Source: Lama guanicoe
Taxonomy: Eukaryota
NCBI GenBank assembly: GCA_013239625.1
Contig: MU053594.1
Span: 2,298,127-2,362,126, forward strand
Length of the DNA stretch: 64,000 nucleotides
Reading direction: 5' to 3'
Shown: in pieces, positions 1,301 to 33,969 of the stretch
How positions within the stretch are numbered: the stretch's first letter is position 1
Layout of the letters: each line of letters opens with the position of its first letter
Made by a program: the position numbers and the translations under genes
Notes under the pieces: generated by a model
What the model saw: only the letters and a program-made list of their open reading frames with translations
Database searches by the model: none
What the model was told of the DNA's origin: nothing

Positions 1301-4300
1301 CTAGAGAGGCCAGAAATATCTGACTGGGTCGCACCCTGAGGCATTTACTCCGTGAGGGGTCGATTTTAATCGAGACCGCGTGCTGCGCAAGTTGAAGCCA
1401 GTTACCTCTTCTGATGACTCTGGCTCCAGGTGAGACTGGTGCTTCCCTTCAATGAGCTTAGAGAGAAGATCCCTTCCTGTTTCAGAGGTGGGCTGCTCAT
1501 CCAGCAGAATAGCCCTTAGGCTTTGGTCAAGCTGACTGTCCCGGGAAGCTGCTGACATTTGCAGTGTGATGGAGAATGCTTCCCTGAAATAAGCCTTCAA
1601 CCCCTGGTCAAGGAAAAGGTCAGGGGGCAGATCACTTCGGCTTCCAGGCAATTGCTATTTAAGTTTTACAATAATAGTGGAAAGCAAAGCGGGGTTTGCG
1701 ATTTGTCATCTTTACTTGCTCTCATCGCAGGTTACCACTGTCATTTGTGATTCTGGTGAAGTTTACGTGTTGACAGTGAAATTCCCATAGAGAGCTGTGA
1801 CGCTGTTCTCACAGGAAGATCACGTCTCTCCAGCATTCTTAGTGTGGTGCATGCACTTGGTCATACGCTGCCACAGGAAATTTGATTGGGAAACTCTTCT
1901 TGGCCAGGCAGGAGGAACCAAAGGCCACCAGTGGGATTGAAGTAGATTTGAAATGTTACCAAGCTTATGGCATTTACTCTCCTGGGGACTGGGCTGTGAG
2001 TCACAGAGATGGAGAATCAAAAAGCCCCATGCGTGTTATAAATACCTTGTAAAAGGACCTCAGGAAGGCAGGGTTGGAGTCCTGGTGGAGGTCCTGGGCA
2101 GCGATGTGGGCCAGGCAGTGGATCAACAGCAGAACGAAGCCTCCCACCGATGCCAAACACTCTCTCCCAACAAACAGTGTGTTTTCAGCACTCTGAGCGG
2201 AGAAAATACCCAAACCCAGAGATGTCACCCTCAGGGAACATTTTTACTGCCTCTTCCTTTTTCTAGTTTTGTATGATGTAAAACAACTTTTGGAATCATA
2301 ACATCAGAGACTCCCTGGGCCTAATGGAAATTTACTGAAGGCAAGATTCAGATGTCAAGGGAAAAGGGACCGTTTTAGCTCAGCTCTCTGAATAAATCAT
2401 TTTCTCCACTGTCTCGCAATTTTTTTTGCTACCCTTAGCTTACAGAAAATAAACAATTGGAAATTCAGAGAAAAATCATTCATGTATCTATTTAAAAAAA
2501 TGGTAGGGGGGAGGAAATAATTAGGTTTATTTATTAATGGAGGTACTGGGGATTGAACCCAGGACCTCATGTATGCTAAGCACGTGCCCTACCACTGAGC
2601 TATACCCTCCCTGTCATGTTTCTGTTTTTTTTTTTAAATCAATGTCATCCAATTATTATTTCCTTACACAGCAGTTCTCAAACTTTAGTGTGAGTAAGAA
2701 TCACATGAGGGCAATTCTACTTTGGGGGCCCACCCCAGAATTTCTGGTTTCCTGGGCTTTAAGTGGGGCTTGGCATTTCCATTTTGACCAGATTCCCAGA
2801 TGGCTGGTTCACGGGGTCCAAGGACCGAAGTTTGAGAAGCACTGCCTTAGGGGCTTTCAGACTTTCCTTGCCTTTCATGACTTTATTGTAATCAAGTTCT
2901 CAAATCTCCTGTCTTGTCTAGTTGATTTGAAATAACTCCTTGTTCATCCTCTGAAGAGACAATAGGTTGGCACAGAAAAGCCTTGGATGGTTTGGAATCA
3001 GTCTGAGATCAGTTTCTGGAACCAGCTGTGGGTGGCAGCACAGACTGGTGGTTAAAAAATGAGTTTGGTGTCAAATGTACCTGGGCTTGAGTTTCAACTC
3101 TTGCTACACTGTGATCTTGGGCAAGTCACTGGGCCCCTCTGGGCCTCAATTTCCTAATTCATAAAATGGAAATGACAAGAGCACACATCCCTTGGGGTTG
3201 GGCTCCTGAAAGTTACAAGTGAGATAATACATGAGACACACGGCCAAGTGCCTGGCACTCAGCACTCAGTGAATCCGGTCTGTTTTCCCATCAGTAAAAT
3301 GGGATTAAATTCTTGCCTCTTTCATAGATTGCCTTGAGGATCAAGTGAAGTAATGCCTGAAGAATACAACATATGAGTCGTTTTTGGTCTTACTAAATCG
3401 CCTAACAACCTACTAGTCAAGTATAAATCATTTCCTCATCCTCTAACATTGGTTAGCAGTTCTGCCTCTCACATAGTGTTTACCAATGCAGTGTCTGAGT
3501 ATTTAAGGTCCATATCCACCTAGGCACTGACAGTCTACATATCTGAGGAACTTCCAGGGCAGGAACAAGTTAGATCCCTCTCTGTAGAAAGGTGCTGACT
3601 GTGCAGGAGTTCCTGAAGCTGGAACCGTGACTCTTACGGGAAACACCAGCCTGGAACCAACTGGCTTTGGTAGTGACAGAAATTCATTAATGGGCGCAGA
3701 GCCATTATGAGTCTCTGGGCACCAGCCCAGGACGGAGTCATTTCACTAATTAGAGAAAGCTCTTACATGGTGACATTTATTATGCCTTAGCTAAATGACT
3801 TATTACCTAGAGGAAATAAAATATGTGAGGACTTGAGAGAGAAAAACGTGTATGACATTTGTTCTTTTGGCTTCTCTCTTTATGAGACCCTAGAATTCTA
3901 TAAACCCACATCTGGGGCTGGGAATTTGAAGGACCTGATAGAAGAAGGAACCCTGGAAGGCATTGTCTGAAGCTTCCAAGGCAGGAAGACGGGAAGCAAT
4001 CTGCAGGGTGATCTCTGGAGCCTGCAAAGAAACAAAAATGAAAACAAAACCAAAACCCATCCTTTTGCTAAAAAAATTCTCATGCAGCTCAGTTACATAG
4101 CACCAACCAAAGTAATGGGAAGTAAATGCTTTGGAACATCAATTTAAATTGAGCAGGTTAAGTCGATTGTACTACATACGAACAATGGAAAGAGTATTTA
4201 ACTCGGTGTTTGAAATTCAGGAGAACTATAAGCATTGACTTACTGCTTTTCTAAACAGAGGTAGAGTTGCAGTCAGGCGCGAGGGCTCTCCGGCCATGAT

Positions 4301-7300
4301 GCCTGGGTTCTAACCTGGCTCCACCCTTTTATTGTACATTCTTGGGTAAGTTTACTCAACCACCTTATGTATTTCCCCTCCATTTTAAAATGAGGAAAAA
4401 ACATGATAGTATCTTTGCCGTAGGGTTTTTGTGAAGATTAGATGAGTTCATTAATGCAAATTAAAAGAGCATTTTCTGTCCTGCACAAAGTGCTGGATTC
4501 ATTCCACTTGCTGTCCTATCATCTGAGAGATCAGACCTTAGGTTGTGAAGTGACTCCCATCAGGCCCCCTAAAGGAGAGACTTAGAAAGTCCCCTGTTCC
4601 GGGTACTTCATCCTAAGGACTATCCACCACCTCAAAGCCTCCTTCCTGGCCACCCTGACCTCCTTGGCTCCATGGGTGACCGCTGCACAGAGAGGCCAGT
4701 CGCCAGACTCACATGAAGCTGGGGGATGAGGAGGTGCAGGATGGAGAGGCCGTGCTGGTAGACCACAAACTCCCTGGCAGAAAGGTCTGTGGATTGCACA
4801 GTTACCAGCTCTTCCTTCTGCATTATCTGAGGTTTTGGGAGATCCTGCAAAGAGCTTTTTGGGGCTACAGACATCAAGAGAAAACAGTGATAATTTCACT
4901 GGCTTTTCTGTATAGTGATGCTATACTAATAAAAACAACAACAAAATTCAGCTTAGGAAAAGGTGTATTTGTATCAATCTGTCCATCCTTCCCTCCCTCT
5001 ATCCCTCCCTCCTCCATCCATCCCCTCATCCATCCATCCATCCATCCTCCTGTGCTATATATATGTTGTGCCTCAGGCTCTCCTGCCAATCTTCATGGAA
5101 AAGCATTTCAGCCCCAGTCATTAGAAATGGCTCAGGCCAGCCACATTCTCTTTCCAGCTTCGAGAGGTGTTTTTGGCAAAGTGATCTGGAGTTCCTTTCT
5201 GGGGCAAGATCCTCTTTCTCTCTGTTTCCTCTGTCTCCCTGTGTCTCAACCTTTTCCATTAATTCCTTGCAATATGTGGCTGGGGTAAAACTCCAAGATT
5301 TAGATTCAGTGTTCAGTGGGGAGACACAGGGCTTTTAGGAATTCCCTTTAGGGAATTGGCCAAGTTATTATTACAGTGAGACTTTGATTTCTGTTTGTTA
5401 TTCCTTATATGGAAAAATCCCTTGGAATCTTTTTTTTTAAATTGAAGTATAGTTAGTTACAGTGTGTCAATTTCTGTTGTACAGTATACCGTCCCAGTCA
5501 TGCATATATATAAATATATATATATACACATACACACATATATTCATTTTCATTAAAGGTTATTACAAGATATTGACTATAGTTCCCTGTGCTGTATAGA
5601 AGAAATTTGTTTTTTTAAATCTATTTTTATATATAGTGGTTAACATTTGTCAATCTCAAACTCCCCAGTTTACCCCTTCCCACCCCCTTTCCCCTGGTAA
5701 CCATAAGATTGTTTACTATGTCTGTGGGTCTGTTTCTGCTTTGTAGATGAGTTCATTAGTGTCCTCTGGGAACCTTAGGATGGGGGTGGGGAGAAAGGGA
5801 TGATTGGCAAGGAGGAATTCTGATGCTTCTAGTCCTGGGTGTTACGCCACTGAACCCATGTCAGTGCGCCATGATAATTCTAAACAGGGGCCACCGGGGA
5901 AGGAGGTTACCTGGTTTGTGATGCACTTGTCCTTGATGTTCAGCTCCATCCTTGTGGACTTGGGACCTGGTGTCTACTTTCTTCAGGGTGGAGAAGAGTG
6001 GTGAGGTCCACATGATGTCAACTTTATCTGCATCTGAACAGAGGAGAAGAAAGTAATTGTTGGAGTAAGGGTGCAAGAACTGTGGCCAAAGACCAAAAGA
6101 GCCAGACGTGGCATCAGGTGTGACAGGCAGCCTCTATGACAGTGCCCAGGGTCCCCCGTTGTGTATCTGTGCCCTGTGTGATCTCTTCCCCTTGAGTATG
6201 GGTTGCATCTAGTAATTCGCTTCTAATGCACAGAATATGGCAGAAGTGGTGAGAGCAGGATACAAGAAGACTATGGTTTCCACCATTCTTTGCCCTCTCT
6301 CACTTGCTCTGAAGGAAGCTAGTCACCATCTTGTGAGCGGCACTGTGAAGTCCATGTGGCAAGGAATCGCTGTCTCTGGACAGCAGCCAGTGAGGACTTG
6401 AGGTCTGCCAACAGCCATGAGAGTGAACTTGGATTCTGCAGTCAAACCTTGAGATGACCACAGCCCTGGCCCGACGCCTTGATGTGGCCCGTATGAGACC
6501 CTGAGCTAGAGGCCCCCAGCTAAGCTGCACCCAGATTCTTGACCCACAGAAACCATGAGATAATAAATGTTTGTTGTATTAAGCAGTGAAATTTTGGGGT
6601 AGTTTGTTACACAGCAATGTACTCGTAATACCTTGGGTTTCTTTATATTCTTCCTTAAGAACCTATTGTGGCCACACTCTGATGGTGCTTGGAGCTCTAA
6701 TTATATTAGAACTTATCAAAGCATGATCAGGATTGGCAGCAGAAGGGAAAGCTGGACCCGTGACCAGCCTTACCTGTTCCTGGCCCCCCATCCTCCAGTC
6801 CTAGCCCGCCGCGTTGAGTTCCCGCCAGCACTGTAGTGAGGCTCTTCAGAAAGGGGATCAACTGCGGGCAGGCAGCAGCCTGGGCCCTGGGAGAAGTGGT
6901 GGTTGTTCCATAGAATCTGTCTCCAGGGTAATTCTCCAAACACACAGGGGTTCCTGAAGCAACAATCTAGGATGCAATAGTCAGGACCTAGTTGTGTGCT
7001 TGGTTCCCACGTGTGCCCACTTATCTCTGAAGCATCCAACAAAAACTGGACATGCAGGTCTCCTCGGCCAAGTCTGGAGGTCAGTACCTGGGTGTGCAAG
7101 AGCTGGAGGCGGCTCAGCGCCCGTTGGTACTGCAGCTGCCCGAGGGCCCTGTCCAGGAAGCTCTGTCTCTCCCTCACCGTCTCCTGGAACTCAGCCGAGA
7201 GATGCTGAAGCACCTAGGACACGGGAAATGAAATGCCCCAAGAGAGTTGGAGAGTCTTTCTCTTTCTTCCGGTTCCCCTCCCTGCCCACCTGCTGCTCCC

Positions 7301-10300
7301 TGAGCCCACCCACCTCTGAATGTTGCATTGTCCTGAAGAGCTACATCTGATGACATGGGCAGACGTGCTATCTCGCATGGGTCCCCTTGTCAGCCCCTGA
7401 GCCTCACCTGCCTGGGGCGGTTCCAGATCTGTGGACTCTGATTTTTCCTCTGCTGGAGCCGCATCTCCTGCTCCTGGCCCCGCAGCCGGCCAGCTGCCTG
7501 CCTGAGCTTTTCGGCTGCCTGTCCCAAACTCTGCAAGACTTTCTGCATGCCCAGCGTCACCTGCGTCTCCCGTTCCCACTCCTCTCTGTCTGCTGCAAGG
7601 GGCAGAGAAAAGGGCCACGTGGCAGCGCCACCCCTAGGGGCAGGGAGGAGAAGGAAAGACGCAGTGGCTTATTGGAGGGGGCTGGGGGGACTGCCAGGTT
7701 GGAGCCAGGGCCCGGCTGGGGGCCTGGGAGGTGAGCACATGGAGAGGGCAGGAGGCAGCCCCGCTGGGCACCTGGGGGCGGCGGCACCACTCCCAGAGGT
7801 TTCTGCCCTGGGATCTGGGCCCCGGAGATGCGTTCCCACCTTGAGAGAGCAGGCCCCGCTCCGGGCCGCTGTGCCTGCTCAGGGCTCTGGCTCGCCTCTG
7901 GGTCTCCCGCAGGCAGGAGGCCTCCAGTGCCGCGCAGGCCCCCTCAGCCGCCTTCAGCTGCGGGGATGGGAAGCCCAGAGCGGTGGGCCGGGGAGGGGAG
8001 GCGGGAGCTCTGGGCTGGACCAGCGCCGCCTCCCCCTCCATCCTGCAGAGCCGCGGAGGGATAACTGAAGCCGGGCCTGGAGCTGGGGCATCCTGGCCCT
8101 CTGCCCTGAGAAGGACTCCATGCCTGTGGCTGGGAACAGACAATGGCCCCCCACTTCCAAGAGAACCCTGTGAGGACTGGGCAGGCGGGCGGGTGGGGCC
8201 GGGAGGTGGGGCCTCACCTGCTGCCCTGGGTCTTTCCCTGGAGCGGAGAGCAGCGCCCGACTCAGGGCCGCCAGGTGCTCCGCCAGCCGCGCCTCCTCAT
8301 GTTCCTGGCGGCGCCAGTGCTGCTCCCGGGCTCTCAGCTCCTTCTCCAGGGTGTCCAGCTACAACATCCAGATTGTTTAGGCCTCGGACACTTTTTCTCT
8401 TCACAGCCTGGGTCTGGCTGAAGGTCCCTAAAGCCTCTTAAGACATAGGTCTCCCCACCCCTGGGCGTCCATGACTAAGCCTAGTGAAGCAGGTGACTTG
8501 GCGGTAAATGGAAAAAGAATCACCACACACCACACACCTCCCTGCCTGTTTTGAACACCTGGACTCTCCAGGGTCACCTGCCCCTGCCCACCTTTCTCCT
8601 GGGAAGCCAGAGGGGATGGGCGTGTGGCAGCGGGAAGGTGTTCCCAGACCCTCAGATACCCTTCTGTGAAACCGTGAGTCGGGGCTAGAATTTAAATTTC
8701 GTAGCTTCTAATGAGAATCTTTTATAACATATCCATCCTGGTTTCTGAAACTGTAACTAGGCTGAGAATGTATGGGAGGGCCCTAAATCATTTTCATTTT
8801 CCTGGAGAAACTGCCAAAGGCTGAATTACTGCAATATCCTCCTGACAGGGCTTCCGGCTCTAGTGTGGCCCTGCCCCCATCCATCCTCTGCACAGCTGCC
8901 AGAGGGAACTTTCTAGAATGCTGATTACAGATACACACACACAAGCTTGACAATGTCTGGAAGGAGGTGTGCCAGCCCGTTAATAGTGGCTGCATCTGTG
9001 GGAGACACTGGAGGAGAGAAGAGTGTTCAGATAGGGGAGCAAAACGGGGGTTGGGGTATGTTGACAGCAGATGGAGTGAAAGTGAAGGGGAGGAGGGGGC
9101 TCTGGCATCTTTAATTGGATACTTTAAAAAAAGAAGTAGGATTTTGAGTAACTTATTTTCTTTTTGTATTGTTCCAAATTTTCCAAATGTGAAAGCCTTG
9201 CAAATATCCCTGTCTGATCATATCATGTGTCTCCTTAGAATCCTTCGATGGCTCCCCACGGCTTTCATGGTAAGTCACATTTCGTGGCTTCAGTCAAGCA
9301 CACAAGACTGTTCCTGATTCGTTTCTGCCCTTCCTCATTGGCCCCATCTGCTATCTTTGCCCCTGTGCCTTCCTCATTCTCCTGGAACATTCATGATCTC
9401 ACACGTGCTACCTTTGCACGTGCTGGCCCTGCTTCAGGTTTCAGTCCAAGCTCATCCTCTTTGGGGAAGCCTCCCTTGAACTCTCGCCCTGTGATTTAGA
9501 TGCCCTTCCTCCGTGCTCCCTTCGCACCCCTGTAAGCCACGATCATGGCTGAAACCTGTGGCTGGCCAGTTCCCTGAGGAGAGGAGCCCTGTCTAGCTAT
9601 CTATGCATCTCAACACCTAACACAGTGCCTGGAACATAGAAATATCTTGGTAAGCAGTTGCTGAGTGAATGAAGAAATGAGCAAACCCCTCCTACGTACC
9701 AGACCAGGGTCCCTCACTTCCCGAGGTAAGGCCTCCAGCACCTGGACAACGGGCACCACCACCCCGGCAGAGGGATCCGTTTGAGCACCAATGACAGGCC
9801 CAGCTTCCCCCGTCAATGGGTCTATGGCTTGAGCCCCAACTGCAATTGGGACCAGACCTGCGGGATGCCAAGCCCACCATCGGCGTTAGTAACCAGAAAT
9901 GGGGAAAGAAGGAAGGAGTGGTCCTGGGAAGAAGGAAGCACTGCTGGGAGGGAGCTGACGGAGCCCTTCGAACCCTGCTCACCCTTCTTTATTTTGGGTC
10001 TCAGCAGCCCCAGTGATGGTAGCAGGATGACCCCATTCCTTGGCTCACCAGTGAATGGACTGGGGGCACCCCTCCTGAGCTTTACAGGGGCTTCAGTCAC
10101 ATTCCTGACTCTCCCCCACCCCTCAGGCTTTCAGAGGCCCCAAGGCCCCTCCTACCTTTGCCATCAGCATCTTCCATTGAACCTGCCAGGGGAGCGGCGG
10201 CACCAGAATTCCCGTCACTCTCCATGCCCAGGACGGGAACCAGGAGCCCTGAGCCCTCGGGGTCTGGGATCTCCATCCCATACAGGACCGGGACCCTCAG

Positions 10301-13300: not shown

Positions 13301-16300
13301 TTCTTTCACCGAGCAGTTCTCTTCCGCATGGAGCCTCTGCAGCCGGAATATTGAAGTGAGGAAGGAGGAGAAGGCCTTTAACGCTCTGCTGGTCACCAAG
13401 CCTCACTGTCCAAGGGGAGAGCCCCGCTTCCCATGCTGTGCCCCTGGGAGTTCATTCCAGAAGGCCCCAGTAAGCCCCAGTGAGCCCTGTGCTGGGCTGG
13501 GGCCATGTAACCCAGAGTCTCACCAGAACTGGAGTCAGTGGTGGGCACCAGGGCGGCTTCCTGCAGATCGTAGCCCAGATTTCCAGCCTCGGGCAACACC
13601 CGCCCAGTGTCAGGGTGGATGAAGTAGCCAGTGGGTATGGGCCCCGGGTGGCCGCTGGCAGGGAGCATCACACAGTTGGGGCCAGGGACCATCAACTTGG
13701 TGATGGGATTCACACTGATGTCATCAGCGCCCCCTTGAGGGCTTGTTGAGGCTGCAGGAAAGCAGACACCTGCTCAGCCCTGGGTCGGAGGCCATCTGGC
13801 AGGTTAGTGGCTCCTGCCTGGTGACTAGAAGGAGTTGGCGAGAACCCCACCCCAACCACACCCCGGCACGGGGTGTAGCAGGTGCTTCCTGAGGCAAGGG
13901 AATCTTGTTCTTTGCTGAGTCCAGGTCAGGACTCCACATTCGGGATGTGACCCTGACAGCATCATATCGCAGGCCGGCAGCCACTGGCAGGGCCTTGGGA
14001 AATGGTGGTGACCAGATGGAGCTCGGGGATCCTAGAACTCAGCATGCCCATGGGGTCCCACAGGGGGTCCTTCTCCCGCTCCCCCTTCCCAGGCAAGTTC
14101 AGCCTTTTGCATTCATCAGCCAGGCTTTTGCTCTCAGGAAGAGCTACCGTATATGTAAAGCTACCCTTTGTGGTGGTTTTGTTTGTTTCCTCCTCTGCTC
14201 TTTCCATGTCCGAGACTCCGTCTTCTGTAACTTAGACGTTTGCCCAGGATGCTGCACAGGAAGCCCCTCCCAAACTCGGGGGTTTCCACTTGGTTTGGCC
14301 CTGCAGGGTGTCTCAGGGGTGGGACTGTCGCCCTGAATACAAGGCCAGGTTTCCTGGCCGAGGCTGAGCAGGGCTCACCTGGCGGCAGCAGCTCCGCCCC
14401 AGTGCCGGTGCCCAGGACGCCCCAGGCCTTCAGGCGGTGGCCCTCCTGCAGCACCACCTGGGACAGGTGGCCCAGTGCAGCGTCCAGCTGGGGGCCTTCC
14501 CTGCAGGGGCACAGGGGAGAACCCATCAGAGGGATGGGTAACTAGGGATGGGAGAAGGACTCGTCAGTGTGGCCAGTCCTGGGACCCACGAAGCCACATT
14601 CGCTCCCCACCCAGTCCAGATCTCGCCCAGCCTGCCTCAGATTCACCAGGCACACACCCTTCCGGGTTCTGCCCAGCCAGGGAGGACTTCACCGGCCTGG
14701 AGCCTGAATGTGCCTTCAGCAGCCGCTGAGCTGCCATCAGTGCTGAGCAGAAAGAGCCCCACTGCTCCTGCCGTGCGCGGAGGTCTTGGCGAAGGAGCGT
14801 CAGTTGGTGACTAAGGCTTGCTGCGTACTCGCCTGCCAGGTGCCCCCTCCGCCTGGCCTCCTCCTCTGCTGTCCTGGCAGCTGCCTCTGCAGCCTGGGGT
14901 CAGAGACAACCTTCCCTGCTTACCTGCAGGGCCCACAGCCACTGGGGACAGCAGCGTCGGGGACTGGGCACCCCGCAGAGCACTCTGGGCCGGTAGGGTG
15001 GCAGTGGCCATCAGGGTGGGGCTAGAACCCCGGGGCCTGGGAGATGGACCAGGTGCTGAGGGGGCCTCAGTGAGGGAGGAGAGTTGCAGCTGGGCACAGG
15101 GACCAGATGGGAAGCATGAACAGGGCCAACCTGTTGCTGCTCCCTCTGGAGGCTCCCCGGAAGCTGGCCAGCGGAGGCTGGGATGCGACACTCAGCACCC
15201 CACAGCTGCAGGAGCGACCGGGCTTCTCTCCGGAGTCTGAGGCACAGGAGTTTGAGCTGTGAGAGAGGATGGAGTTGGCACCAGGAGGGGCCCAGCCTCT
15301 TTCACGCCTGTGGTCGCAGCGCCCCCTGCTGCCAGTTTGCAGAGGGACTCCCGAGGACCAAATGCCCTTACACTGGAAGGAAGGAACAGGTGAAGACCAG
15401 TCCAAGCTGGTCTGGTTAGTGGGGAGGGTATAGCTCAAGTGGTAGAACGCATGCTTAGCGTACACAAGGTCCTGGGTTCAATTCCCCAGTTCCTCCTCTA
15501 AATAAATAAGCCTAATTACCTTCCCAGCAAGACACAGCTCGCCTGCCACCCAGCTTAGAAAACTTGGATTTCTAGTTGCTGTCATTGCTCTCTTAGTTCC
15601 AATACCTGTCACCTACTGGCCTGCATTTTCTCACCCAGATGGGCCATCCAGAGGTGGCTTTGGTACATTCCCTACCAGTGATCTGAGGCTCCAGGGCTCA
15701 TAAAATCAGTCCTATATTTAATCTGAGATCTTCTATCTCCCCTCCCCGAATGATTTTTCCCCCCAGTTCATTATGGATACACTGAGGGTTTCTTTAGGCT
15801 CTGTGTCCCGTCACCAGCTCTCTCAGAGACAGATTCGCTTCTGGCCCCACTTGCTTCTCTACCTCCTCTGCTCACCTCCTCCTTGGTCTGACTGAGTTTG
15901 GTGGTCACTGACAGAGACTGTCTGAGCAGGATCCCATAGAAGGTTTCCGTGTCAAACCCCTCCAGGTCCACCTGCTCCTCCGTCTCCCAGCCCTCACCTG
16001 TGGGGGGCGAGGGAAAGCAAGATTATCCCCCCAGAAATGCACACATGAGCTTCCCCTACAGGTTCTCCGTGTTTCTTCGTCCTCAGATCCTCACCCTCTT
16101 GCTACTGAAAGCTCGGTCTTTTGACAAGTTGCATTAGTTTTGCTGAAGAACTTGTTAGAAATGCAGAGTTCCAGGCCCCGCCCCAGACCTGTTACTGCTG
16201 CAGAGGATTCCCAGGTAACTCCTAATCACCCCTGAAGTTTGAGAAGAACAAACGAGTTCCCGTGCTGCTCTCTGAGGCCCGTACTTTGAGGAGCAGGAGT

Positions 16301-19300
16301 AGAAGGTGAAACATCTCAACATGACGCACAAGGCCTCCTCCAGCAGTGCCAGGCATTCCTAACTTGGCCACTGTATCCGTGGTTACATGGCCCTTTTCTT
16401 TTGGAAAGTTTGCATTTTGGTGTCTTTGTCCTCTCCTACACTGTGTACTCCTAAAACCTGGCCGTGTCCGGCCTGCAGTATCTTCTCAATAAACATTTAC
16501 TGAGCAAATGGATGAGTGTAGACAGATGGAACAAGATCTAGGAAGATGAACAGAGGAAGCGGCAGCGGGCTGGCTGCATGTGGGGGCACCTCTGGGAGTC
16601 CAGCCCCAGCCTGGCACTCACCGGGACCTCCTGCGGCCCTGGGAGCATCAGAGTCCTGGTGTGGTCGGCCTCTCCTCACTGCTGTTACCTTAGCTTGCGG
16701 GGAAGTGTAGGCCTCCAGGTTGTAGCCCTGCTGATGCTTCCTGAAGGTAGGCTGGGGAGCTGCCTTCCGGGCCCAGCTCAGGCTGTGACACTGAACCTGC
16801 GGGCAACATCACGGGCGGCGAGAAGGAAAGGGGAAACTGGGGAGAAGCACCCTTTCTGAAGACGCTGAGAGGGGGAGATCCCCGCTCGGGGGTGGTTAGG
16901 GAGAACCTCCTCTTCTCTTGCTTGGACCATTCTAGTAGCCTCTCTCTCTCTTTCTTTCTAATCCATCTCTGTCTTCCACCTTGCTGCTAGAGTAAATATA
17001 AAAGTCTTACCAGGTTTTCTGCCTTGCTCAAAATTCTTAGTTGATCCTCACTGCCTAGAGGATAAAATCCAAGCTTCTTAGCAGGGCCCATGCATCCATC
17101 CATCATTTGGTCTCTGTCCCATTTCCAGCCTCTTCCCTGTCCTGGCACCCAAAGCTGCAGTCACAAGGACCACACTGGGTTGCCTGAGCAGATGGACCTC
17201 ACTTCGTGCCTCGGAGTCTTGGCTTGTAACACTCTCATTCTTACCCTCACCCCGCCTCCCACGTGCATTACCCTCCCACCCCAACTCACCAACCCCTTGT
17301 CAATACAAGGACTGAATTCTTGTATGTCTCACACTTCAGACCTGTTTCAGGGATTCCCTTCTCAAGAAAGTCTGTCCTGACCTCCCAGGGAGACAGTCAC
17401 CTCCCTCCTTTGTGCAGCCAGCGCCCCCTGGGCACACTCACCAGAGCTCCTCCCACTCGCTGACATTTATTTGAGTCCTTGTCTGCACTCTTCCTACTAA
17501 GCTTTGACCGCTGGTGGCCTGAGGTTGCACCTCACACACTCTGGCATCTTAGCCACCGTGATAATCCCTACTATGGGTGGGGACTGAAGACCCGCGCACA
17601 TGGCATTGGAGAGCTGGTCTGGCACAGTGGTTAGGACGTCACTTGTCCAGCTTCACTCACCAAGAGAAGCAGGCAGAGCCCCAGGAGCAGGACAATCTCC
17701 CCCAGGACTCCTGGCCAGTCAGACCTCTTCGGGGGCCTGGGGATCCTGGCGATGCCAGTTTGGACGAGATACCCGGGAGTCGTGGAGACAAAGGGCCCTT
17801 CCACAAAGCACTGGCCCCCTGGCGGGAGGGTGCGGATGTACTGGGTGGAAAGAAATCTGTTCAGCCTTTGTCCCACTGTCTGCCAGAACCCAGCCAGGGG
17901 ACAGAGAGGGAACCCAGGCCTGTGGACACTAACCAAATAGTCCAGACCTTTGTGCCTACCTGAGGGGAGCAGAATCTGGGTTTTCCCTGGGAAACTAGTT
18001 TGTATCACAGAGGTGTCCTGGTAGCACGTTCTGGGGCCCAGTCAGCACAGCCTCTTAAAGGTTGGACTGACAGGCTGAGCTACTAAATCCTGTGTGTGAT
18101 CGCGACAGTGCACCTGGATCAGTGGTGACCTCACACACAGGTCATGTGGATAAAAGCCTGCGTAGATCAACTTGGGATCTGTGCCTTCAGGATGAAAGAG
18201 GGGTAGGCAGGATGAAATGAAGTAAGGGGCCGTGAGAGATGGCCACACAGTCTGATGTCCTTAGAGAAACCTTGTATTTTCATCCTTACAATTGTCCCCT
18301 CCTTACACACTGCAGGTTGCTGCCCTGGAGTGAACCCGTGGCATACCCAGAATTATGTCAGGATTGTGGGAGCCTGAGACTTTGTTGGGGGCATCTGGGG
18401 CACCTCTTCCCTGAAGATCTGTCTGAGGTGGTCATGAGGCAGTAGTTTTTAAAGAGAGGGGTGATGGTGGGATACCGATAAGGCAGACCACCACAGACAA
18501 ACCATCTTCCGATGCCGGTTGCTGTTCAGACGAAAGACATAGACCCCAGGCTGGAACTGCTGCAGGAAGAGGTGGGAGCTTTGATCATGGAGCTGGGACT
18601 CCTCAGCCAGGGCCCGGAGGCGCCCCCAGTCAAATTCCCCCTTGGTGTTATAGAAGTGGCCCCTGGGATGGAGGAAGGAAGGATGGAGTGTTGTCTCTCA
18701 GCTGCGGGCACAAGGAGCATCTCCTCCAGGGCCTCGATGGGGGCGGGGCCGTGTCCTCTGGACACTCACAGGTCATACTCAGGGTAGTGCTCCCGGGTCA
18801 CCAGAAAGGCCAGTGTGTCATTGGTTTGGAGGCAGACCGTGGGGTTTCGGATGCCCGGCTCCGGGGACGACAGATTCCCGAGGTGGGTGGAGTTGAGGCT
18901 CAGCAATGAAGGAGAACTCAGATGTGTGTCCCTCGACTTTCCTGAGCAAGATTCAGGAAATGAGGAAGGGCAGCCACTTTTCAGGTGGATTCGTGCAGGG
19001 ACCTGGGGAAGGTGGAGGAGAGAGAGGGGAGGAAACGGGTGTTCACAGTGATGCTCACCTGCATCCTGGCCTGGGAGCCTGGGGTCCCTGAGAGGCAGGC
19101 CGAGGGAGTGCAGTAATTCATGGCCTGGTCTGGTCAGGCCCAAGAAGCCAGTCCCTAGAACAAAACAGGGATGACCCTGAAACTACAGGGTTGGGGACAG
19201 AGTTGCTTCTAGTGTGTGGAGGCAGGAAGTTGCCCATCCCTGATTTGCATGAGGCAAGATTCAGCTTTCTAAAAAATTAGGGGGAGGTGGGTGGATCAGA

Positions 19301-22202
19301 ATTGACATGCACTTCTTAGAGAGCCCTCTGGGGGCGGTGTTGCCCATCACCCCCCAGCTTCCGCTTGCAGGGACCATGCTTAACCCGTGGCAAGATCAAG
19401 GCTTGCCCATGTGAGGTTTTGAGCTGCAGGTGTCCCTGGGGCCTCCTTCTGTCCAGCTCTCTTACCATCCACCCTGACCACATACAGAGGGACAGAATTC
19501 TGCCTTCGGTCCAAATTGCAGGGATGGCCCACAGCACGTGGTGAGGAAGGCCTATCCAGAAGGTAAAATTCCTGGAAACAGGGAGGTGCCGTGTCAGCTC
19601 TTCCTTTAAGACGCAGTGAGTAACACTCATGGGGCAGGGAGGTGGGGAGGGTGCCGGCCCTTCCTGGGGCTTCGTCTGGGTGTCCTGATGAGGCTGGAGG
19701 GGAGGCAGCAGTGGGAATAGGTCTAAGGGCAACATGGAATCACAACCTCCAATACTGCCCTTGCTCAGGGCAGAAGATTTCAGTCACACTTTCCCCCCTT
19801 TTTAATGAACACAATGACTTTTCAAGTAGTTTTATAGGGCGAGATTACATCAGCAATGGGCTGTAATTTTTCTCTGGCATTAGAGGTTGGGCCAGTGATG
19901 TGGGTTAGCGTGCAGGGCTCCAGACCCTGCAAAAATCATGTCACTCTCCCCACCCCTCACCGCCACCACTTAGCCACTTAGGAAGGAGGCAGAGGCTGCA
20001 GGTGCTGGGCCTGTGGCTCCCTGCAGCGGCCTGACTCAGCAGGAGTTGGACCTCGGGGCGTCATACCTGGCCACCGCTGTCTTCAGTGATGGAAATCTGT
20101 GGGATGCCGTCGGGGCAGCTGAGCTGCAGGACGTGTGTCTGTCTCTTTGGGCACAGGGGACCACACATCTCACTCGAGTGTTGCCCCCAGCACAGACAGA
20201 GCCCCAGGCCTGGGTCATAGCCACGGGCATCTTCTGGCGTAGCACACACCTGCACAAAGACTCAGACTTCTTGGGGATGTCTTCCTGCGGAGGTTCGCCC
20301 CCAGTTCTCCCCAGCTTCAGAGTGAATAGCCCAGGTCTCCATGTTTCCAGAGGTTGGGGCTACTGGAACGAGCCTCTAGCAGCTAGGAGGTTGGGCAGGT
20401 GGGCAGGTGGGCAGAGGACCAGGCTACAGGAGGTGCGCTATGTGGGTGTCTCCTACCTCGTGGACACAGTGGTCCTTCCATTGTTCCTTGGTCAAACAGA
20501 GCCCCTCTTGGTTCCAGGTGGCCCCATCTTTGCAGGTCTTGTATTCTCGCTGGACACAGCCCCCTGGCTCTCCAACATCTTGGTAGCCTGGGAGGCAGGG
20601 GCACTGCCCGTCACTGGGCTGGGGGTTGGGGAGGAAGGGAATGCAGTTTCAGGTTGGCTGTTAGTATTTGGTTGCTGTGATCGTGACATATGATTCTTTG
20701 GTGGTGACCCTGCCTGAGATGGGCCAGTGGATATGGGAGGGGAGGGGAAATAAGGGATCACTGGGGGCAGAGAGGAGTCAGACCAAAGGGGAGGGTTACT
20801 GGCACATGCTGGTTAGGGGCCAGTGGGGGCCATCATTTCAGTGCAAAGGATGTGGGAAGTTCAGGAAAGGAAGACTTCACATGCGTATTTGTTGGCTTAT
20901 GGGGCAAGTTCAAGTTGTTAGGGCTTGGGCCCTGGGCTGTATTGGGAGTGGTCATGGTGGAGGACAACAAAGGTTGCCCTTTCCTCCAAGAAAGGTTGTC
21001 AGATTTAGTAACTAAAAATACAAAGTACCCCCTTAAATTTGAATTTCAGATAAGCAGTGAATACTTTTCCAGTGTATGTCTCAGTCCATATTTAAGACCT
21101 ACTTATAATAAAATCATATCCATAATCTATGTGAAATTCAAGTTTAACTGGGCACCCTATATTTTACCTGGCAACCCTATCCCCAAGTCACTTGGCAACA
21201 TGAGCTAATCCTGGTCAGGTTACACTTGAGCTGAACTTGACTCAAGAACAAAACAGTCCTGGCGATGTAGCCCGTCCTTGGGTCCCACCGCCAGCGGACA
21301 TACCTGGAACACTCTGCCAGGCCTCGGGCATACGCATGTGTCCTTGCCCTCCTCCGGCTGGGTGGCTTCCGAGCCACAGGGGAAGCAGGCATTCTGACCA
21401 GGCCAGGGGTTGAAGAATTCCCGAGGGCAGAGGTGGCAGAAGGGAGCATCGTGGGGACTCACTCGGGAGAGGAAAGTTCCAGGTGGACAGGGGGCAGGCG
21501 GTGAGGCAGGACAGGGCCCACCTGTGGGGTGACAGGCAGACAGTAATTAGAGCTGAGACTAAGTCTTGGGGCCTCCTGGGGATTCCCCTGGAGCCCTAGG
21601 TGGACCCCTGACTTCTCTCTTCCCCCACTAAGGGGCTTCTGAACCCCCTACCCTAGCCCAGCCCAGATGTTTCCTGAAGCCAGCATCTTCCCTCAGAACT
21701 GTTTTTCCCTCTCTCCTCAACTTTCCCCCTAACTCCTTTGATGCAAAGTGAGCCCCAGCCCCTACCCTGTGGGCAGCCTGGTTGGTCAGGCTCTTCTGCA
21801 CAAGGCACCTGGTCCCCACAGTCCTGAGGATTCCCCCTGCTCAGGCACATGGCGCTCTGGAGGGCAAAGCAGAAGAGGGGTACACAGGCCCATGTCCCTG
21901 GGGTGCTCCCAAGGGAGTGACTCCTCACCTTCTGGGCAAGGGTGACAGTGGCAGAGAGAGAGGCAGACATGGAGGTCGGGGGAGGACAGACACCGAGAGA
22001 GACCTCTGGGGACACAGATGGAGAGAGAGCAGAGTAAAAGGCAAAGACACAGTGATGGAGCAACAGCAGGACGGGAGAGGCGCAGTGATCTGGGCGATCT
22101 GGGCGATCTGGGCCCGGGATCTGTATGCAGAGAGAAGTACCCCCGCCAGGCCAGCTGCTGCCGCTCACAGGAGCTCCAGGGAGCACTCACTGAATATTTC
22201 AT
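1301..22202 (-). CDS. Uncharacterised 29-exon gene encoding a ~1700-aa predicted single-pass membrane protein (Gm32742-like by recollection)
   Basis: Manual splicing of 29 exons with GT-AG introns and consistent phases. 5076 nt (1692 codons) are open from ATG 22202 to a donor at 1406, or 1726 aa if the last exon reads to TAG at 1301-1303. Family identity is recalled, not searched. Confidence 0.88.
1406..1603 (-). CDS. Exon 29: GLKAYFREAFSITLQMS...LEPESSEE (splices at 1406 to an exon not found in the window, or reads on to TAG at 1301)
   Basis: Acceptor tgaccag|, phase 0. A good donor GAG|GTAACT follows 1406, but the frame also stays open to the stop at 1301-1303. Confidence 0.82.
2046..2192 (-). 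CDS. Exon 28: SAENTLFVGRECLASVGGFVLLLIHCLAHIAAQDLHQDSNPAFLRSFYK
   Basis: Acceptor cgctcag|, donor AAG|GTATTT, 147 nt, phase 0-0. Confidence 0.9.
2506..2611 (-). mobile_element. tRNA-derived SINE (camelid Vic-1 type)
   Basis: Reverse complement reads GGGAGGGTATAGCTCAGTGGTAG...GGTTCAATCCCCAGTACCTCC plus an A-rich tail, with Pol III A and B boxes. Confidence 0.85.
2668..2846. mobile_element. MER5-type hAT DNA transposon remnant
   Basis: Terminal-repeat-like ends cagcagttctcaaact ... agtttgagaagcactg. Confidence 0.7.
3040..3275 (+). mobile_element. MIR SINE
   Basis: Core tgtgatcttgggcaagtcac...cctcaatttcc...aaaatgg. Confidence 0.75.
3935..4021 (-). CDS. Exon 27: APEITLQIASRLPALEASDNAFQGSFFYQ
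   Basis: Strong acceptor tttgtttctttgcag|, weak donor CAG|GTCCTT, 87 nt, phase 0-0. Confidence 0.85.
4713..4864 (-). CDS. Exon 26: APKSSLQDLPKPQIMQKEELVTVQSTDLSAREFVVYQHGLSILHLLIPQLH
   Basis: Acceptor tctgtag|, donor CAT|GTGAGT, 152 nt, phase 1-0. Confidence 0.9.
4982..5050 (+). repeat. (CCCT)/(CCAT)n simple repeat
   Basis: Visible directly in the sequence. Confidence 0.85.
5430..5767 (-). mobile_element. L1 3'-end fragment (artiodactyl/camelid type)
   Basis: Poly-T followed by attgaagtatagttagttaca...atagttccctgtgct...cccctggtaaccataag. Confidence 0.8.
5911..6033 (-). CDS. Exon 25: DADKVDIMWTSPLFSTLKKVDTRSQVHKDGAEHQGQVHHKP
   Basis: Acceptor tgttcag|, donor CAG|GTAACC, 123 nt, phase 1-1. 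Confidence 0.87.
6119..6630 (+). mobile_element. MLT1 (MaLR) solo LTR
   Basis: 3' end ...agaaaccatgagataataaatgtttgttg...gtagtttgttacacagcaa is typical of MLT1. Confidence 0.8.
6774..6966 (-). CDS. Exon 24: IVASGTPVCLENYPGDRFYG...CPQLIPFLKSLTTVL...GGPGT
   Basis: Acceptor atcctag|, donor CAG|GTAAGG, 193 nt, phase 0-1. Confidence 0.9.
7088..7213 (-). CDS. Exon 23: VLQHLSAEFQETVRERQSFLDRALGQLQYQRALSRLQLLHTQ
   Basis: Acceptor gtcctag|, donor CAG|GTACTG, 126 nt, phase 0-0. Confidence 0.9.
7408..7592 (-). CDS. Exon 22: ADREEWERETQVTLGMQKVLQSLGQAAEKLRQAAGRLRGQEQEMRLQQRKNQSPQIWNRPRQ
   Basis: NAGNAG acceptor ttgcag|CAG, donor CAG|GTGAGG, 185 nt, phase 1-0. Confidence 0.9.
7840..7957 (-). CDS. Exon 21: LKAAEGACAALEASCLRETQRRARALSRHSGPERGLLSQ
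   Basis: Acceptor cccgcag|, donor AAG|GTGGGA, 118 nt, phase 0-1. Confidence 0.87.
8218..8358 (-). CDS. Exon 20: LDTLEKELRAREQHWRRQEHEEARLAEHLAALSRALLSAPGKDPGQQ
   Basis: Acceptor gttgtag|, donor CAG|GTGAGG, 141 nt, phase 0-0, coiled-coil-like. Confidence 0.88.
9200..9675 (+). mobile_element. L2 3' fragment
   Basis: Ends cacagtgcctggaacatag...tgagtgaatgaa. Confidence 0.7.
9700..9857 (-). CDS. Exon 19: LVPIAVGAQAIDPLTGEAGPVIGAQTDPSAGVVVPVVQVLEALPREVRDPGL
   Basis: Acceptor cccgcag|, donor CTG|GTACGT, 158 nt, phase 1-0. Confidence 0.92.
10156..10326 (-). CDS. Exon 18: MMCYPGTALRVPVLYGMEIPDPEGSGLLVPVLGMESDGNSG...EDADGK(G)
   Basis: Acceptor gtgctag|, donor AAG|GTAGGA, 171 nt, phase 1-1. Confidence 0.92.
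11403..11783 (-). CDS. Exon 17: QVLALGGLRDASGNLMLPGDSFVEPLSRK...SGGRI(G)
   Basis: Acceptor cttccag|, donor TCG|GTACGT, 381 nt, phase 1-1. Confidence 0.92.
11862..12541. other. Assembly gap (680 N) within intron 16
   Basis: Run of N with G-rich flanks on both sides. Confidence 1.
12908..13243 (-). CDS. Exon 16: AVRTSDAAVLPYVPYPTCPATG...MTDPLTGIEVPVLAVTLHPQTR...MEDPVTGGISPILGVGLDEST(G)
   Basis: Acceptor tgtccag|, weak donor CAG|GTCTCC, 336 nt, phase 1-1. Confidence 0.88.
13524..13751 (-). CDS. Exon 15: ...ISVNPITKLMVPGP...GYFIHPDTGRVLPEAGNLGYDL...TDSSS(G)
   Basis: Acceptor cctgcag|, donor CTG|GTGAGA, 228 nt, phase 1-1. Confidence 0.92.
14379..14500 (-). CDS. Exon 14: EGPQLDAALGHLSQVVLQEGHRLKAWGVLGTGTGAELLPP
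   Basis: Acceptor cctgcag|, donor CAG|GTGAGC, 122 nt, phase 2-1. Confidence 0.9.
14658..14893 (-). CDS. Exon 13: AAEAAARTAEEEARRRGHLAGEYAASLSHQLTLLRQDLRARQEQW...GQNPE(G) (coiled-coil-like)
   Basis: Acceptor accccag|, donor AGG|GTGTGT, 236 nt, phase 0-2. Confidence 0.85.
15131..15256 (-). CDS. Exon 12: LKLLCLRLRREARSLLQLWG...QREQQQ
   Basis: Acceptor ctcacag|, donor CAG|GTTGGC, 126 nt, phase 0-0. Confidence 0.85.
15317..15335 (-). promoter_or_regulatory. CTCF motif match (intron 11)
   Basis: Reverse complement CTGGCAGCAGGGGGCGCTG has one core mismatch. Confidence 0.5.
15421..15525 (+). mobile_element. tRNA-derived SINE (Vic-1 type)
   Basis: ggggagggtatagctcaagtggtagaacgcatgcttagc...ggttcaattcccc...taaataaataagcctaattacc. 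Confidence 0.85.
15876..15997 (-). CDS. Exon 11: EGWETEEQVDLEGFDTETFYGILLRQSLSVTTKLSQTKEE
   Basis: Acceptor cccacag|, donor GAG|GTGAGC, 122 nt, phase 1-0. Confidence 0.92.
16622..16796 (-). CDS. Exon 10: VQCHSLSWARKAAPQPTFRKHQQGYNLEAY...AAGGP(G)
   Basis: Acceptor cccgcag|, donor CCG|GTGAGT, 175 nt, phase 0-1, basic residues follow the TM. Confidence 0.9.
16930..17530 (+). mobile_element. Degraded L2 fragment
   Basis: CT-rich L2-like motifs such as gataaaatccaagcttctta. Confidence 0.55.
17661..17840 (-). CDS. Exon 9 (TM helix): YIRTLPPGGQCF...WPGVLGEIVLLLGLCLLLL
   Basis: Acceptor cacccag|, donor TTG|GTGAGT, 180 nt, phase 0-0, hydrophobic run at about aa 500-519. Confidence 0.92.
18503..18662 (-). 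CDS. Exon 8: GHFYNTKGEFDWGRLRALAEESQ...FLQQFQPGVYVFRLNSNRHRKM
   Basis: Acceptor atcccag|, donor ATG|GTTTGT, 160 nt, phase 2-0. Confidence 0.9.
18770..18941 (-). CDS. Exon 7: KSRDTHL...LNSTHLGNLS...IRNPTVCLQTNDTLAFLVTREHYPEYD(L)
   Basis: Acceptor tgctcag|, donor CCT|GTGAGT, 172 nt, phase 1-2, three N-x-S/T sequons. Confidence 0.88.
19059..19154 (-). CDS. Exon 6: TGFLGLTRPGHELLHSLGLPLRDPRLPGQDA(G)
   Basis: Acceptor gttctag|, donor CAG|GTGAGC, 96 nt, phase 1-1. Confidence 0.88.
19466..19571 (-). CDS. Exon 5: EFYLLDRPSSPRAVGHPCNLDRRQNSVPLYVVRVD(G)
   Basis: Acceptor tttccag|, donor ATG|GTAAGA, 106 nt. It supplies the required phase 0-to-1 bridge and is not in the ORF track. Confidence 0.85.
20067..20249 (-). 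CDS. Exon 4: VCATPEDARGYDPGLGLCLC...ITEDSGGQ
   Basis: Acceptor tgtgcag|, donor CAG|GTATGA, 183 nt, phase 0-0. Confidence 0.9.
20457..20618 (-). CDS. Exon 3: PSDGQCPCLPGYQD...CLTKEQWKDHCVHE
   Basis: Acceptor cccccag|, donor GAG|GTAGGA, 162 nt, phase 0-0, CxCxPGY motif. Confidence 0.92.
20991..21179. mobile_element. MER53-like non-autonomous DNA transposon
   Basis: Inverted ends aggttgtcagat ... acctggcaacccta around an AT-rich core. Confidence 0.75.
21304..21521 (-). CDS. Exon 2: GPCPASPPAPCPPGTFLS...FCHLCPREFFNPWPGQNACFPCGSEATQPEEGKDTCVCPRPGRVFQ (Cys-rich, ephrin-receptor-like)
   Basis: Acceptor cccacag|, donor CAG|GTATGT, 218 nt, phase 1-0, CPPGTF/CxxCP motifs. Confidence 0.92.
21929..22202 (-). 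CDS. Exon 1 (putative start): MKYSVSAPWS...PRSPRSPRS...SLCLCLLLCSLSICV...CHCHPCPE(G)
   Basis: ATG at 22202 with weak Kozak context. Donor AAG|GTGAGG is phase 1 and matches exon 2. The 5' boundary is the least certain part of the model. Confidence 0.6.
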
Positions 22203-33876: not shown

Positions 33877-33969
33877 GGGGGTGGGTATGACTCAGCAGTA
33901 GAGCGCATGCTTAGCATGCACGAGATCCTGGGTTCAGTCCCCAGTACCTCCATTAAAAAAAAAAAAAAC
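33877..33969 (+). mobile_element. tRNA-derived SINE (Vic-1 type)
   Basis: ...gtagagcgcatgcttagcatgcacgagatcctgggttcagtccccagtacctcc followed by poly-A. Confidence 0.85.

Follow-up and report, generated by a model that had tools for sequence, protein, structure and literature searches.

What does the long chain of small exons between BTG4 and POU2AF1 in the guanaco (Lama guanicoe) encode, and does it belong to an intact gene? We consider this question for a stretch of 64,000 nucleotides (assembly GCA_013239625.1, contig MU053594.1, contig positions 2298127-2362126; hereafter the window, numbered from its first letter), for which a preliminary description had proposed a hidden, uncharacterised receptor-like gene. 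The minus strand of the window from 21970 to 1406 almost certainly holds the first 29 of the 31 coding exons of a protein-coding gene that is intact and single-copy and has orthologues in other vertebrates. The gene is the camelid orthologue of mouse Gm32742, rat RGD1562811 and teleost si:dkey-103g5.4, its 1716-residue product is a predicted type I membrane protein, and we suggest that this protein serves as a non-catalytic receptor or scaffold. Taken as a whole, this combination of gene, predicted architecture and role is the best explanation of the locus, with a probability of about 0.6.

Gene structure and locus

In a listing of stop-to-stop open reading frames (ORFs), many frames on the minus strand from 1.3 to 22.2 kb read like protein, and a 1706-residue bat orthologue (P0006) and a Camelus ferus protein (P0002) gave ordered minus-strand tblastn segments on the window. 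With these two proteins as guides, every GT or GC donor and every AG acceptor between adjacent segments was scored for frame continuity and orthologue fit. The best solution joins 29 exons, running from 21970 to 1406, into 5007 nt or 1669 codons with no stop; all 28 introns begin with the canonical GT, end with AG and have a plausible polypyrimidine tract. The frame's first ATG, at 21970, coincides with the orthologue start, and an in-frame stop lies upstream of it at 22187-22189. At its other end, exon 29 stops at a GT donor at 1406 (GAG/GTAACT), and the open frame beyond, which continues to a stop near 1301, is intron read-through.

Two further exons lie some 1.5-1.7 kb past the left end of the window, in the flanking sequence L009. 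Exon 30, at L009 6493-6386, has an AG acceptor, 36 codons and a GT donor; exon 31, at L009 6294-6259, has an AG acceptor and 11 codons plus the stop. Together they encode the C-terminus as it occurs in the Camelus ferus protein, and the full product is thus 1716 residues long and encoded by 31 coding exons. An assembly gap of 680 N (11862-12541) falls within intron 16 and hides no exon, since the orthologue residues are continuous across that junction. The preliminary description had seen the same chain of 29 GT-AG exons in continuous phase, and this stands; its figure of at least 1692 codons was too high, the window containing 1669 and the excess being the read-through past the exon 29 donor. 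It had also placed eight exons off the ORF track (ATG, GTG or TTG start, at least 60 residues), which is right for exons 3, 5, 8, 12, 13, 22 and 27 and wrong for exon 20, which is listed; agreement at seven of the eight indicates that its exon numbering is the one used here. Among the 22 sequencing runs listed, five labelled as RNA contain 0.07-0.11 of the sampled words, a fraction that is not evidence on expression.

Orthology was first apparent from a single exon. Of 8000 candidates scored against the ORF at 12852-13451, 63 proteins reached E <= 1e-3 (best 5.5e-67). All are vertebrate entries of up to 1830 residues under the names 'Predicted gene, 32742', 'hypothetical protein' or 'uncharacterized protein LOC...'; the gene was rightly called uncharacterised. 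The 'Predicted gene, 32742' entries come from Mus spicilegus, Apodemus, Cricetulus, Jaculus and Nannospalax, and rat RGD1562811 was also matched. Over its whole length the spliced product can be aligned with the bat protein P0006 (80.9% identity, 1671 columns) and with a second bat protein, P0012 (78.1%, 1671 columns), ibex P0022 (78.2%, 1571 columns), Mus spicilegus Gm32742, P0024 (66.0%, 1587 columns), rat RGD1562811, P0034 (60.9%, 1658 columns), and turtle P0057 (43.1%, 1594 columns), while fish proteins are 32-35% identical to the bat orthologue across residues 57-1701. Individual tblastn segments are 66-100% identical to the Camelus ferus protein, mostly at least 90%, and the most conserved exons are 94-95% identical among 14 mammalian sequences. 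A genome search with P0002 placed all 24 of its matches at one locus (contig 2296503-2319976), indicating a single copy; one of these matches falls 1.5 kb past the window's left end.

The order of genes on the contig, in contig positions, is as follows.

2247739-2265664, minus strand: HOATZ
2281327-2282472, plus strand: BTG4
about 2296386-2320096, minus strand: the gene under study
2403050-2406833, plus strand: POU2AF1

This order, together with the rodent matches, bears out the name and the interval that the preliminary description had given, namely a Gm32742-like gene between BTG4 and POU2AF1; mouse Gm32742 itself presumably maps to the same interval. In one rodent read-through model the protein is joined to a HOATZ-like domain (E 1e-41). 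Some sauropsid models (bird and turtle entries P0054, P0058 and P0060) join the protein to an ankyrin-repeat 'NF-kappa-B inhibitor zeta-like' sequence, which points either to another neighbouring gene there or to read-through models. One stretch of a rhinoceros 'hypothetical protein' (P0001), residues 60-89, has a 90% match at 34516-34605 on the minus strand, 12.5 kb upstream of exon 1; it is the only one of 993 tblastn segments outside the gene and may represent an alternative 5' exon or an error of exon joining in the model.

The right two-thirds of the window look intergenic, since the 16 longest of 32 stop-to-stop ORFs (at least 110 residues, 22.3-64 kb) matched no Pfam family and POU2AF1 begins a further 41 kb past the right end. 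A search for tandem repeats over 1-24 kb (score 80) found none. Two Rfam tRNA matches, at 2538-2609 (minus strand, 50 bits, inside intron 27) and 33881-33952 (plus strand, 35.9 bits), are probably heads of tRNA-derived short interspersed nuclear elements and not tRNA genes, although this is a guess.

Predicted protein architecture

The exons are listed below in the order of translation, in window coordinates; (-) is the minus strand, and the domain labels are those predicted from sequence and from the models described thereafter.

Exon 1, residues 1-69: 21766..21970 (-), ATG at 21970, signal-like hydrophobic stretch, first Cys; GT donor
Exon 2, residues 69-141: 21304..21521 (-), Cys-rich Eph-receptor/TNFR-like module
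Exon 3, residues 142-195: 20457..20618 (-), Cys-rich
Exon 4, residues 196-256: 20067..20249 (-), Cys-rich
Exon 5, residues 257-292: 19466..19571 (-), ectodomain beta region; cupredoxin-like match starts near the exon's end
Exon 6, residues 292-324: 19059..19154 (-), first cupredoxin-like strands, then a low-confidence loop
Exon 7, residues 324-381: 18770..18941 (-), loop with three NxS/T sequons, then cupredoxin-like strands (NPTVC motif)
Exon 8, residues 381-434: 18503..18662 (-), cupredoxin-like domain
Exon 9, residues 435-494: 17661..17840 (-), end of ectodomain and transmembrane helix (about 17711-17661), from Kyte-Doolittle hydropathy and AlphaFold2
Exon 10, residues 495-553: 16622..16796 (-), basic juxtamembrane stretch, cytoplasmic
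Exon 11, residues 553-593: 15876..15997 (-), acidic/helical segment, conserved
Exon 12, residues 594-635: 15131..15256 (-)
Exon 13, residues 636-714: 14658..14893 (-), helical
Exon 14, residues 714-755: 14379..14500 (-), conserved cytoplasmic module begins (RLKAWG..GTGA)
Exon 15, residues 755-831: 13524..13751 (-), first beta-repeat block
Exon 16, residues 831-943: 12908..13243 (-), DPxTG-type repeats; most conserved part
Assembly gap, 680 N: 11862..12541 (no strand), inside intron 16
Exon 17, residues 943-1070: 11403..11783 (-), end of repeat block 1 and helical hairpin
Exon 18, residues 1070-1127: 10156..10326 (-), second beta-repeat block
Exon 19, residues 1127-1179: 9700..9857 (-), second beta-repeat block (DPLTG, DPSAG)
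Exon 20, residues 1180-1226: 8218..8358 (-), four-helix bundle
Exon 21, residues 1227-1266: 7840..7957 (-), four-helix bundle
Exon 22, residues 1266-1327: 7408..7592 (-), four-helix bundle
Exon 23, residues 1328-1369: 7088..7213 (-), four-helix bundle
Exon 24, residues 1370-1434: 6774..6966 (-), low-confidence linker
Exon 25, residues 1434-1475: 5911..6033 (-), low-confidence linker; much longer in reptile and frog proteins
Exon 26, residues 1475-1525: 4713..4864 (-), C-terminal alpha/beta domain begins
Exon 27, residues 1526-1554: 3935..4021 (-), strands of the C-terminal domain
Exon 28, residues 1555-1603: 2046..2192 (-), helix with HCLAH (codons 2120-2106); conserved Asp 13 residues past the first His
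Exon 29, residues 1604-1669: 1406..1603 (-), ends at GT donor

The preliminary description had drawn a hydrophobic N-terminus, Cys-rich modules, sequons, one transmembrane segment and a tail of about 1200 residues, and the hydropathy, Cys and sequon positions agree with it. The signal-like stretch lies at about residues 27-42, 27 Cys fall within residues 29-274, and NxS/T sequons occur at residues 340, 346 and 364. One strong transmembrane segment (about 476-496; Kyte-Doolittle peak 2.55) coincides with an AlphaFold2 helix at 474-497 in the orthologue. Basic residues follow this helix and would place inside the cell the tail, which amounts to some 1220 residues in the full product; a second hydrophobic stretch, at 1559-1587, is modelled as a buried helix of a globular domain.

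The only Pfam match is Ephrin_rec_like / GCC2_GCC3 (PF07699), just under its gathering cut-off of 23.1 bits. An AlphaFold model of orthologue residues 1-506 (33-row alignment; predicted local distance difference test, pLDDT, 71.1; predicted template modelling score, pTM, 0.67) resembled in Foldseek plastocyanin (E 2.4e-3, prob 1.00, template modelling score, TM, 0.56) and also ELAPOR1, 4-1BB and EphB2, and its Cys-rich region had a structural match to a Chlamydomonas mastigoneme protein. The Cys-rich region is thus predicted to be an Eph-receptor/TNFR-type module, and we tentatively assign a cupredoxin-like beta-sandwich to the segment after it. The copper-binding Cys of blue copper proteins lies in a C-terminal loop. 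The sole Cys of the cupredoxin-like region, residue 360 in the NPTVC motif, is near the region's N-terminal end and none occurs where the ligand Cys lies, so that a type 1 (blue) copper site is unlikely.

The cytoplasmic part was modelled on a natural 1024-residue isoform, P0004, the equivalent of residue 688 onwards (alignment of 38 rows; pLDDT 63.8, with blocks of 70-90). In the model, two blocks of short strands (pLDDT 70-88) carry repeated [DNH]PxT[GK]...P-[VI]-[LI]-G motifs and are separated by a helical hairpin; a four-helix bundle would follow the second block, and a disordered linker of about 120 residues would lead from the bundle to a compact C-terminal alpha/beta domain (pLDDT 78-90). 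In alligator P0053 and Xenopus P0072 the linker region is far longer than in mammals, with about 680 residues between matched segments in Xenopus, and by eye this stretch looks charged and helical. The plakin/plectin repeat (PF00681), which also has 'DPxTG', was considered for the repeated motif and rejected, there being no match at E <= 1 and the modelled motif leading into short strands and not helices.

This cytoplasmic module is absent from Pfam and from the sequences of the Protein Data Bank (PDB); we do not claim new folds. NCBIfam gave no family for three proteins. Against PDB sequences, a whole-family profile matched EphB2 (E 0.015) and two entries above 0.6 and nothing else, and a profile of the module had no match at E <= 10. 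An Atlas feature search with the whole protein pointed only to a fish orthologue cluster.

For the end domain, Foldseek with the cytoplasmic model returned the minigluzincins jannalysin (E 0.034), selecase (E 0.076) and abylysin (E 0.11), with prob 0.99-1.00 and TM 0.57-0.58, among them the structures 4jix_B (E 0.034, prob 1.00, TM 0.57) and 4qhi_B (E 0.076, prob 1.00, TM 0.58). These zincin matches span about 113 columns, their TM scores are normalised to the target, and their E-values of 0.03-0.25 are weak; the Foldseek output carries no residue range, and the assignment of the match to the end domain is our own. The helix that would correspond to the active-site helix reads HCLAH in 35 of the 42 sequences with the domain, HCLSH in five, HCVSH in one and HHLAH in one, and HVLAH, HIMTH, HFAAH, QSMAH and SAVAW in five distant relatives. 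The Glu of HExxH is found in none of the 42 vertebrate-type sequences and in none of the five distant ones, while an Asp 13 residues past the first His (a DSxP-like motif) is kept in most sequences compared. We therefore read the end domain as a putative zincin-like scaffold that has lost catalysis and that may still hold a metal. An Atlas feature search with the C-terminal part gave small phage-type hypothetical proteins (0.90-0.92) and an SprT-like family (0.79), which serve as leads only. The preliminary description had recognised no catalytic motif in the tail, and neither did we: with Pfam, no kinase domain was found in P0006, P0053 or P0037 (E <= 1) or in fish and frog proteins (E <= 0.01), and no other enzyme family was matched.

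Distribution and age of the family

The gene is intact in bats, rodents, carnivores and ruminants, with full-length open orthologues in bats, rodents, fox, ibex and marmot, and it also occurs in reptiles, birds, frog, coelacanth and teleosts. A search with the N-terminal part (50 matches among 5278 candidates) added teleost si:dkey-103g5.4, coelacanth and Xenopus, and also reached distant proteins of 1570-2982 residues from shark, birds, teleosts, frog, Oikopleura, metagenomes and two apicomplexans.

A measure of the family's depth comes from the cytoplasmic repeat module. A 481-position profile (seven sequences, trimmed alignment) searched against 1.84 billion representatives matched 466 at E <= 1e-3, 303 at E <= 1e-10 and 105 at E <= 1e-30. 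Many of these relatives are 2,000-7,500 residues long; 13 of 15 large ones matched no Pfam family and the other two only Ephrin_rec_like. Among 20 relatives that were looked up, 13 are metagenome or run assemblies and seven bear an organism name: Diphylleia rotans (two proteins), Chromosphaera perkinsii, Fabomonas tropica, Barthelona sp., Barroeca monosierra and Hanusia phi. With Oikopleura as a further named non-vertebrate relative from a separate look-up, the module occurs in choanoflagellate, ichthyosporean, ancyromonad, Diphylleia, Barthelona and cryptophyte lineages, and therefore predates animals.

Primates differ. No protein named Homo sapiens was found in the protein database searches, in which several matches were UniParc-only entries without a species name. 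The four primate-named entries (macaque, 710 residues, partial; Saimiri, 685; Cercocebus, 445; Colobus, 462) are, when mapped on the camelid protein, patchworks with blocks of exons skipped, and in the macaque model Arg replaces the first His of the C-terminal HCLAH motif. These entries fit decay in primates, and incomplete annotation would look alike. The earlier statement that the gene lacks a well-established human counterpart is in line with these searches. Its companion, that the gene may have been retained in camelids and lost in some lineages, needs the correction that the gene is in no way peculiar to camelids. Nor is the gene hidden, since NCBI and Ensembl-type predictions exist, including a partial Camelus ferus model (P0002); with predictions already available in many genomes, a camel among them, finding it in a camelid is in itself ordinary.

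In the literature we found the gene only in table listings: Gm32742 stands in a table of genes with raised expression in a mouse kidney cell line (PMC10531624), RGD1562811 is an entry in a rat array list (PMC5068731), and a full-text search found the zebrafish name si:dkey-103g5.4 in no paper.

Possible role and comparison with known systems

What might such a protein do? The lack of a catalytic motif, an ectodomain of adhesion or ligand-binding type and a long tail of repeats and bundle point to a receptor or scaffold, the role that the preliminary description had proposed and that fits the predicted architecture. The ectodomain would bind an extracellular partner, and the long cytoplasmic tail would recruit or anchor partners inside the cell by means of the repeat module and of the end domain, which lacks the Glu of HExxH and may bind a metal, so that extracellular contact would be coupled to cytoplasmic partners. 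We place this non-catalytic mechanism slightly below even odds. It has to be weighed that the conserved His...His...Asp could still support metal-dependent chemistry. The mechanism is drawn from the predicted architecture and the gene model from DNA and homology, and the beta-repeat module was searched structurally as part of the whole cytoplasmic model.

A more specific alternative, which we consider unlikely, is a ciliary or flagellar membrane protein whose extracellular Cys-rich stalk is tied by the long tail to the axoneme or cortex, with a vertebrate role in multiciliated cells or sperm. Most organisms with named non-vertebrate relatives (Barroeca, Fabomonas, Diphylleia, Barthelona, Hanusia, Chromosphaera, Oikopleura) are flagellated, but flagellated members occur in most eukaryotic lineages and the list of taxa does not discriminate. 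The mastigoneme match of the Cys-rich region is generic. Nearby HOATZ matches a Pfam family annotated as associated with cilia and flagella, but in animals the adjacency of genes carries little evidential weight.

It is still less probable, and indeed rather improbable, that the protein is an enzyme-linked receptor in which the C-terminal domain is an active metal-dependent hydrolase with an HCxxH...D site, converting an extracellular signal to cytoplasmic catalysis. The resemblance to minimal gluzincin peptidases would suit it, as would the retention of His-x3-His and of the Asp 13 residues past the first His from teleosts to mammals and in three of five distant relatives (protist, shark and Oikopleura), that of the Cys beside the first His in 41 of 42 sequences, and the weak SprT-like lead, a family carried by 11% of the cluster members. 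The general-base Glu, however, is missing throughout (42 of 42 vertebrate-type and five of five distant sequences), two distant relatives also lack the first His, no peptidase Pfam family was matched, and the structural matches are at best at E 0.03. That the camelid locus is decaying or non-functional, open by chance or recently dead as apparently in primates, has a negligible chance of being correct, because, for all the exon-skipping primate entries and the macaque Arg, its 31 coding exons are all open with canonical junctions, most of its tblastn segments are at least 90% identical to the Camelus ferus protein, the most conserved exons are 94-95% identical among mammals, and full-length open orthologues exist in bats, rodents, a fox, an ibex and a marmot.

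Beyond the non-catalytic receptor or scaffold that we favour, one can imagine a wider history, which we regard as doubtful: the gene would be what vertebrates retain of an ancient eukaryotic family of very large membrane proteins with a single transmembrane helix. A cytoplasmic module described in no domain library, with two 'DPxTG' beta-repeat blocks on either side of a helical hairpin and the Glu-less zincin-like end domain, would define this family and would connect the extracellular Cys-rich stalk with the cytoskeleton in cells that bear cilia or flagella, and the family would have decayed in primates. Such decay, if true, would explain why the family has never been studied, and would mean that biology centred on humans has overlooked a receptor-like protein conserved in vertebrates, leaving mouse Gm32742 and zebrafish si:dkey-103g5.4 as places to find its function. 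The family is of more importance than a single camelid gene, as nothing in Pfam or among the sequences with a solved structure matches its roughly 1220 cytoplasmic residues, and structure work could be directed at two candidate new domains, the beta-repeat module and the zincin-like domain without Glu. What is new here is the corrected 31-exon model, the domain map, the tentative Glu-less zincin-like and cupredoxin-like assignments, and the undescribed cytoplasmic module found across eukaryotes.

Set against known systems, the guanaco gene is essentially the same as Gm32742, RGD1562811 and si:dkey-103g5.4, being collinear with them over its full length, with the same exon-by-exon structure and the same BTG4/HOATZ/POU2AF1 locus. 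The existing Camelus ferus entry (P0002, 1341 residues), in contrast, is a partial model without the Cys-rich exons. ELAPOR1/2, Eph receptors, the TNFR superfamily and the Cys-rich domain of CaSR, with modules of Ephrin_rec_like / GCC2_GCC3 type, are the systems closest to the predicted Cys-rich module of the protein, but no kinase, death, MRH or seven-transmembrane domain was found in it, and its long cytoplasmic part has no counterpart in any of them. The cupredoxins (plastocyanin, amicyanin, pseudoazurin) are only 11-15% identical in sequence and have the ligand-position Cys that is not present here. Similarity of the ectodomain to apicomplexan GCC2/GCC3-domain proteins is weak and yet significant in the database search (Toxoplasma E 2.2e-5, Cardiosporidium E 8.8e-5), the Cardiosporidium match taking in the cupredoxin-like segment; those proteins contain NHL repeats and gave no match to the cytoplasmic module. 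We read them as probable cysteine-repeat modular proteins (CRMPs) with a role in invasion (PMC9815656). Finally, like the minigluzincins jannalysin, abylysin and selecase, the end domain has, in our reading of the model, a His-x3-His helix at the position of the active-site helix; unlike them, it has no Glu after the first His and is part of a 1716-residue membrane protein rather than a free peptidase.

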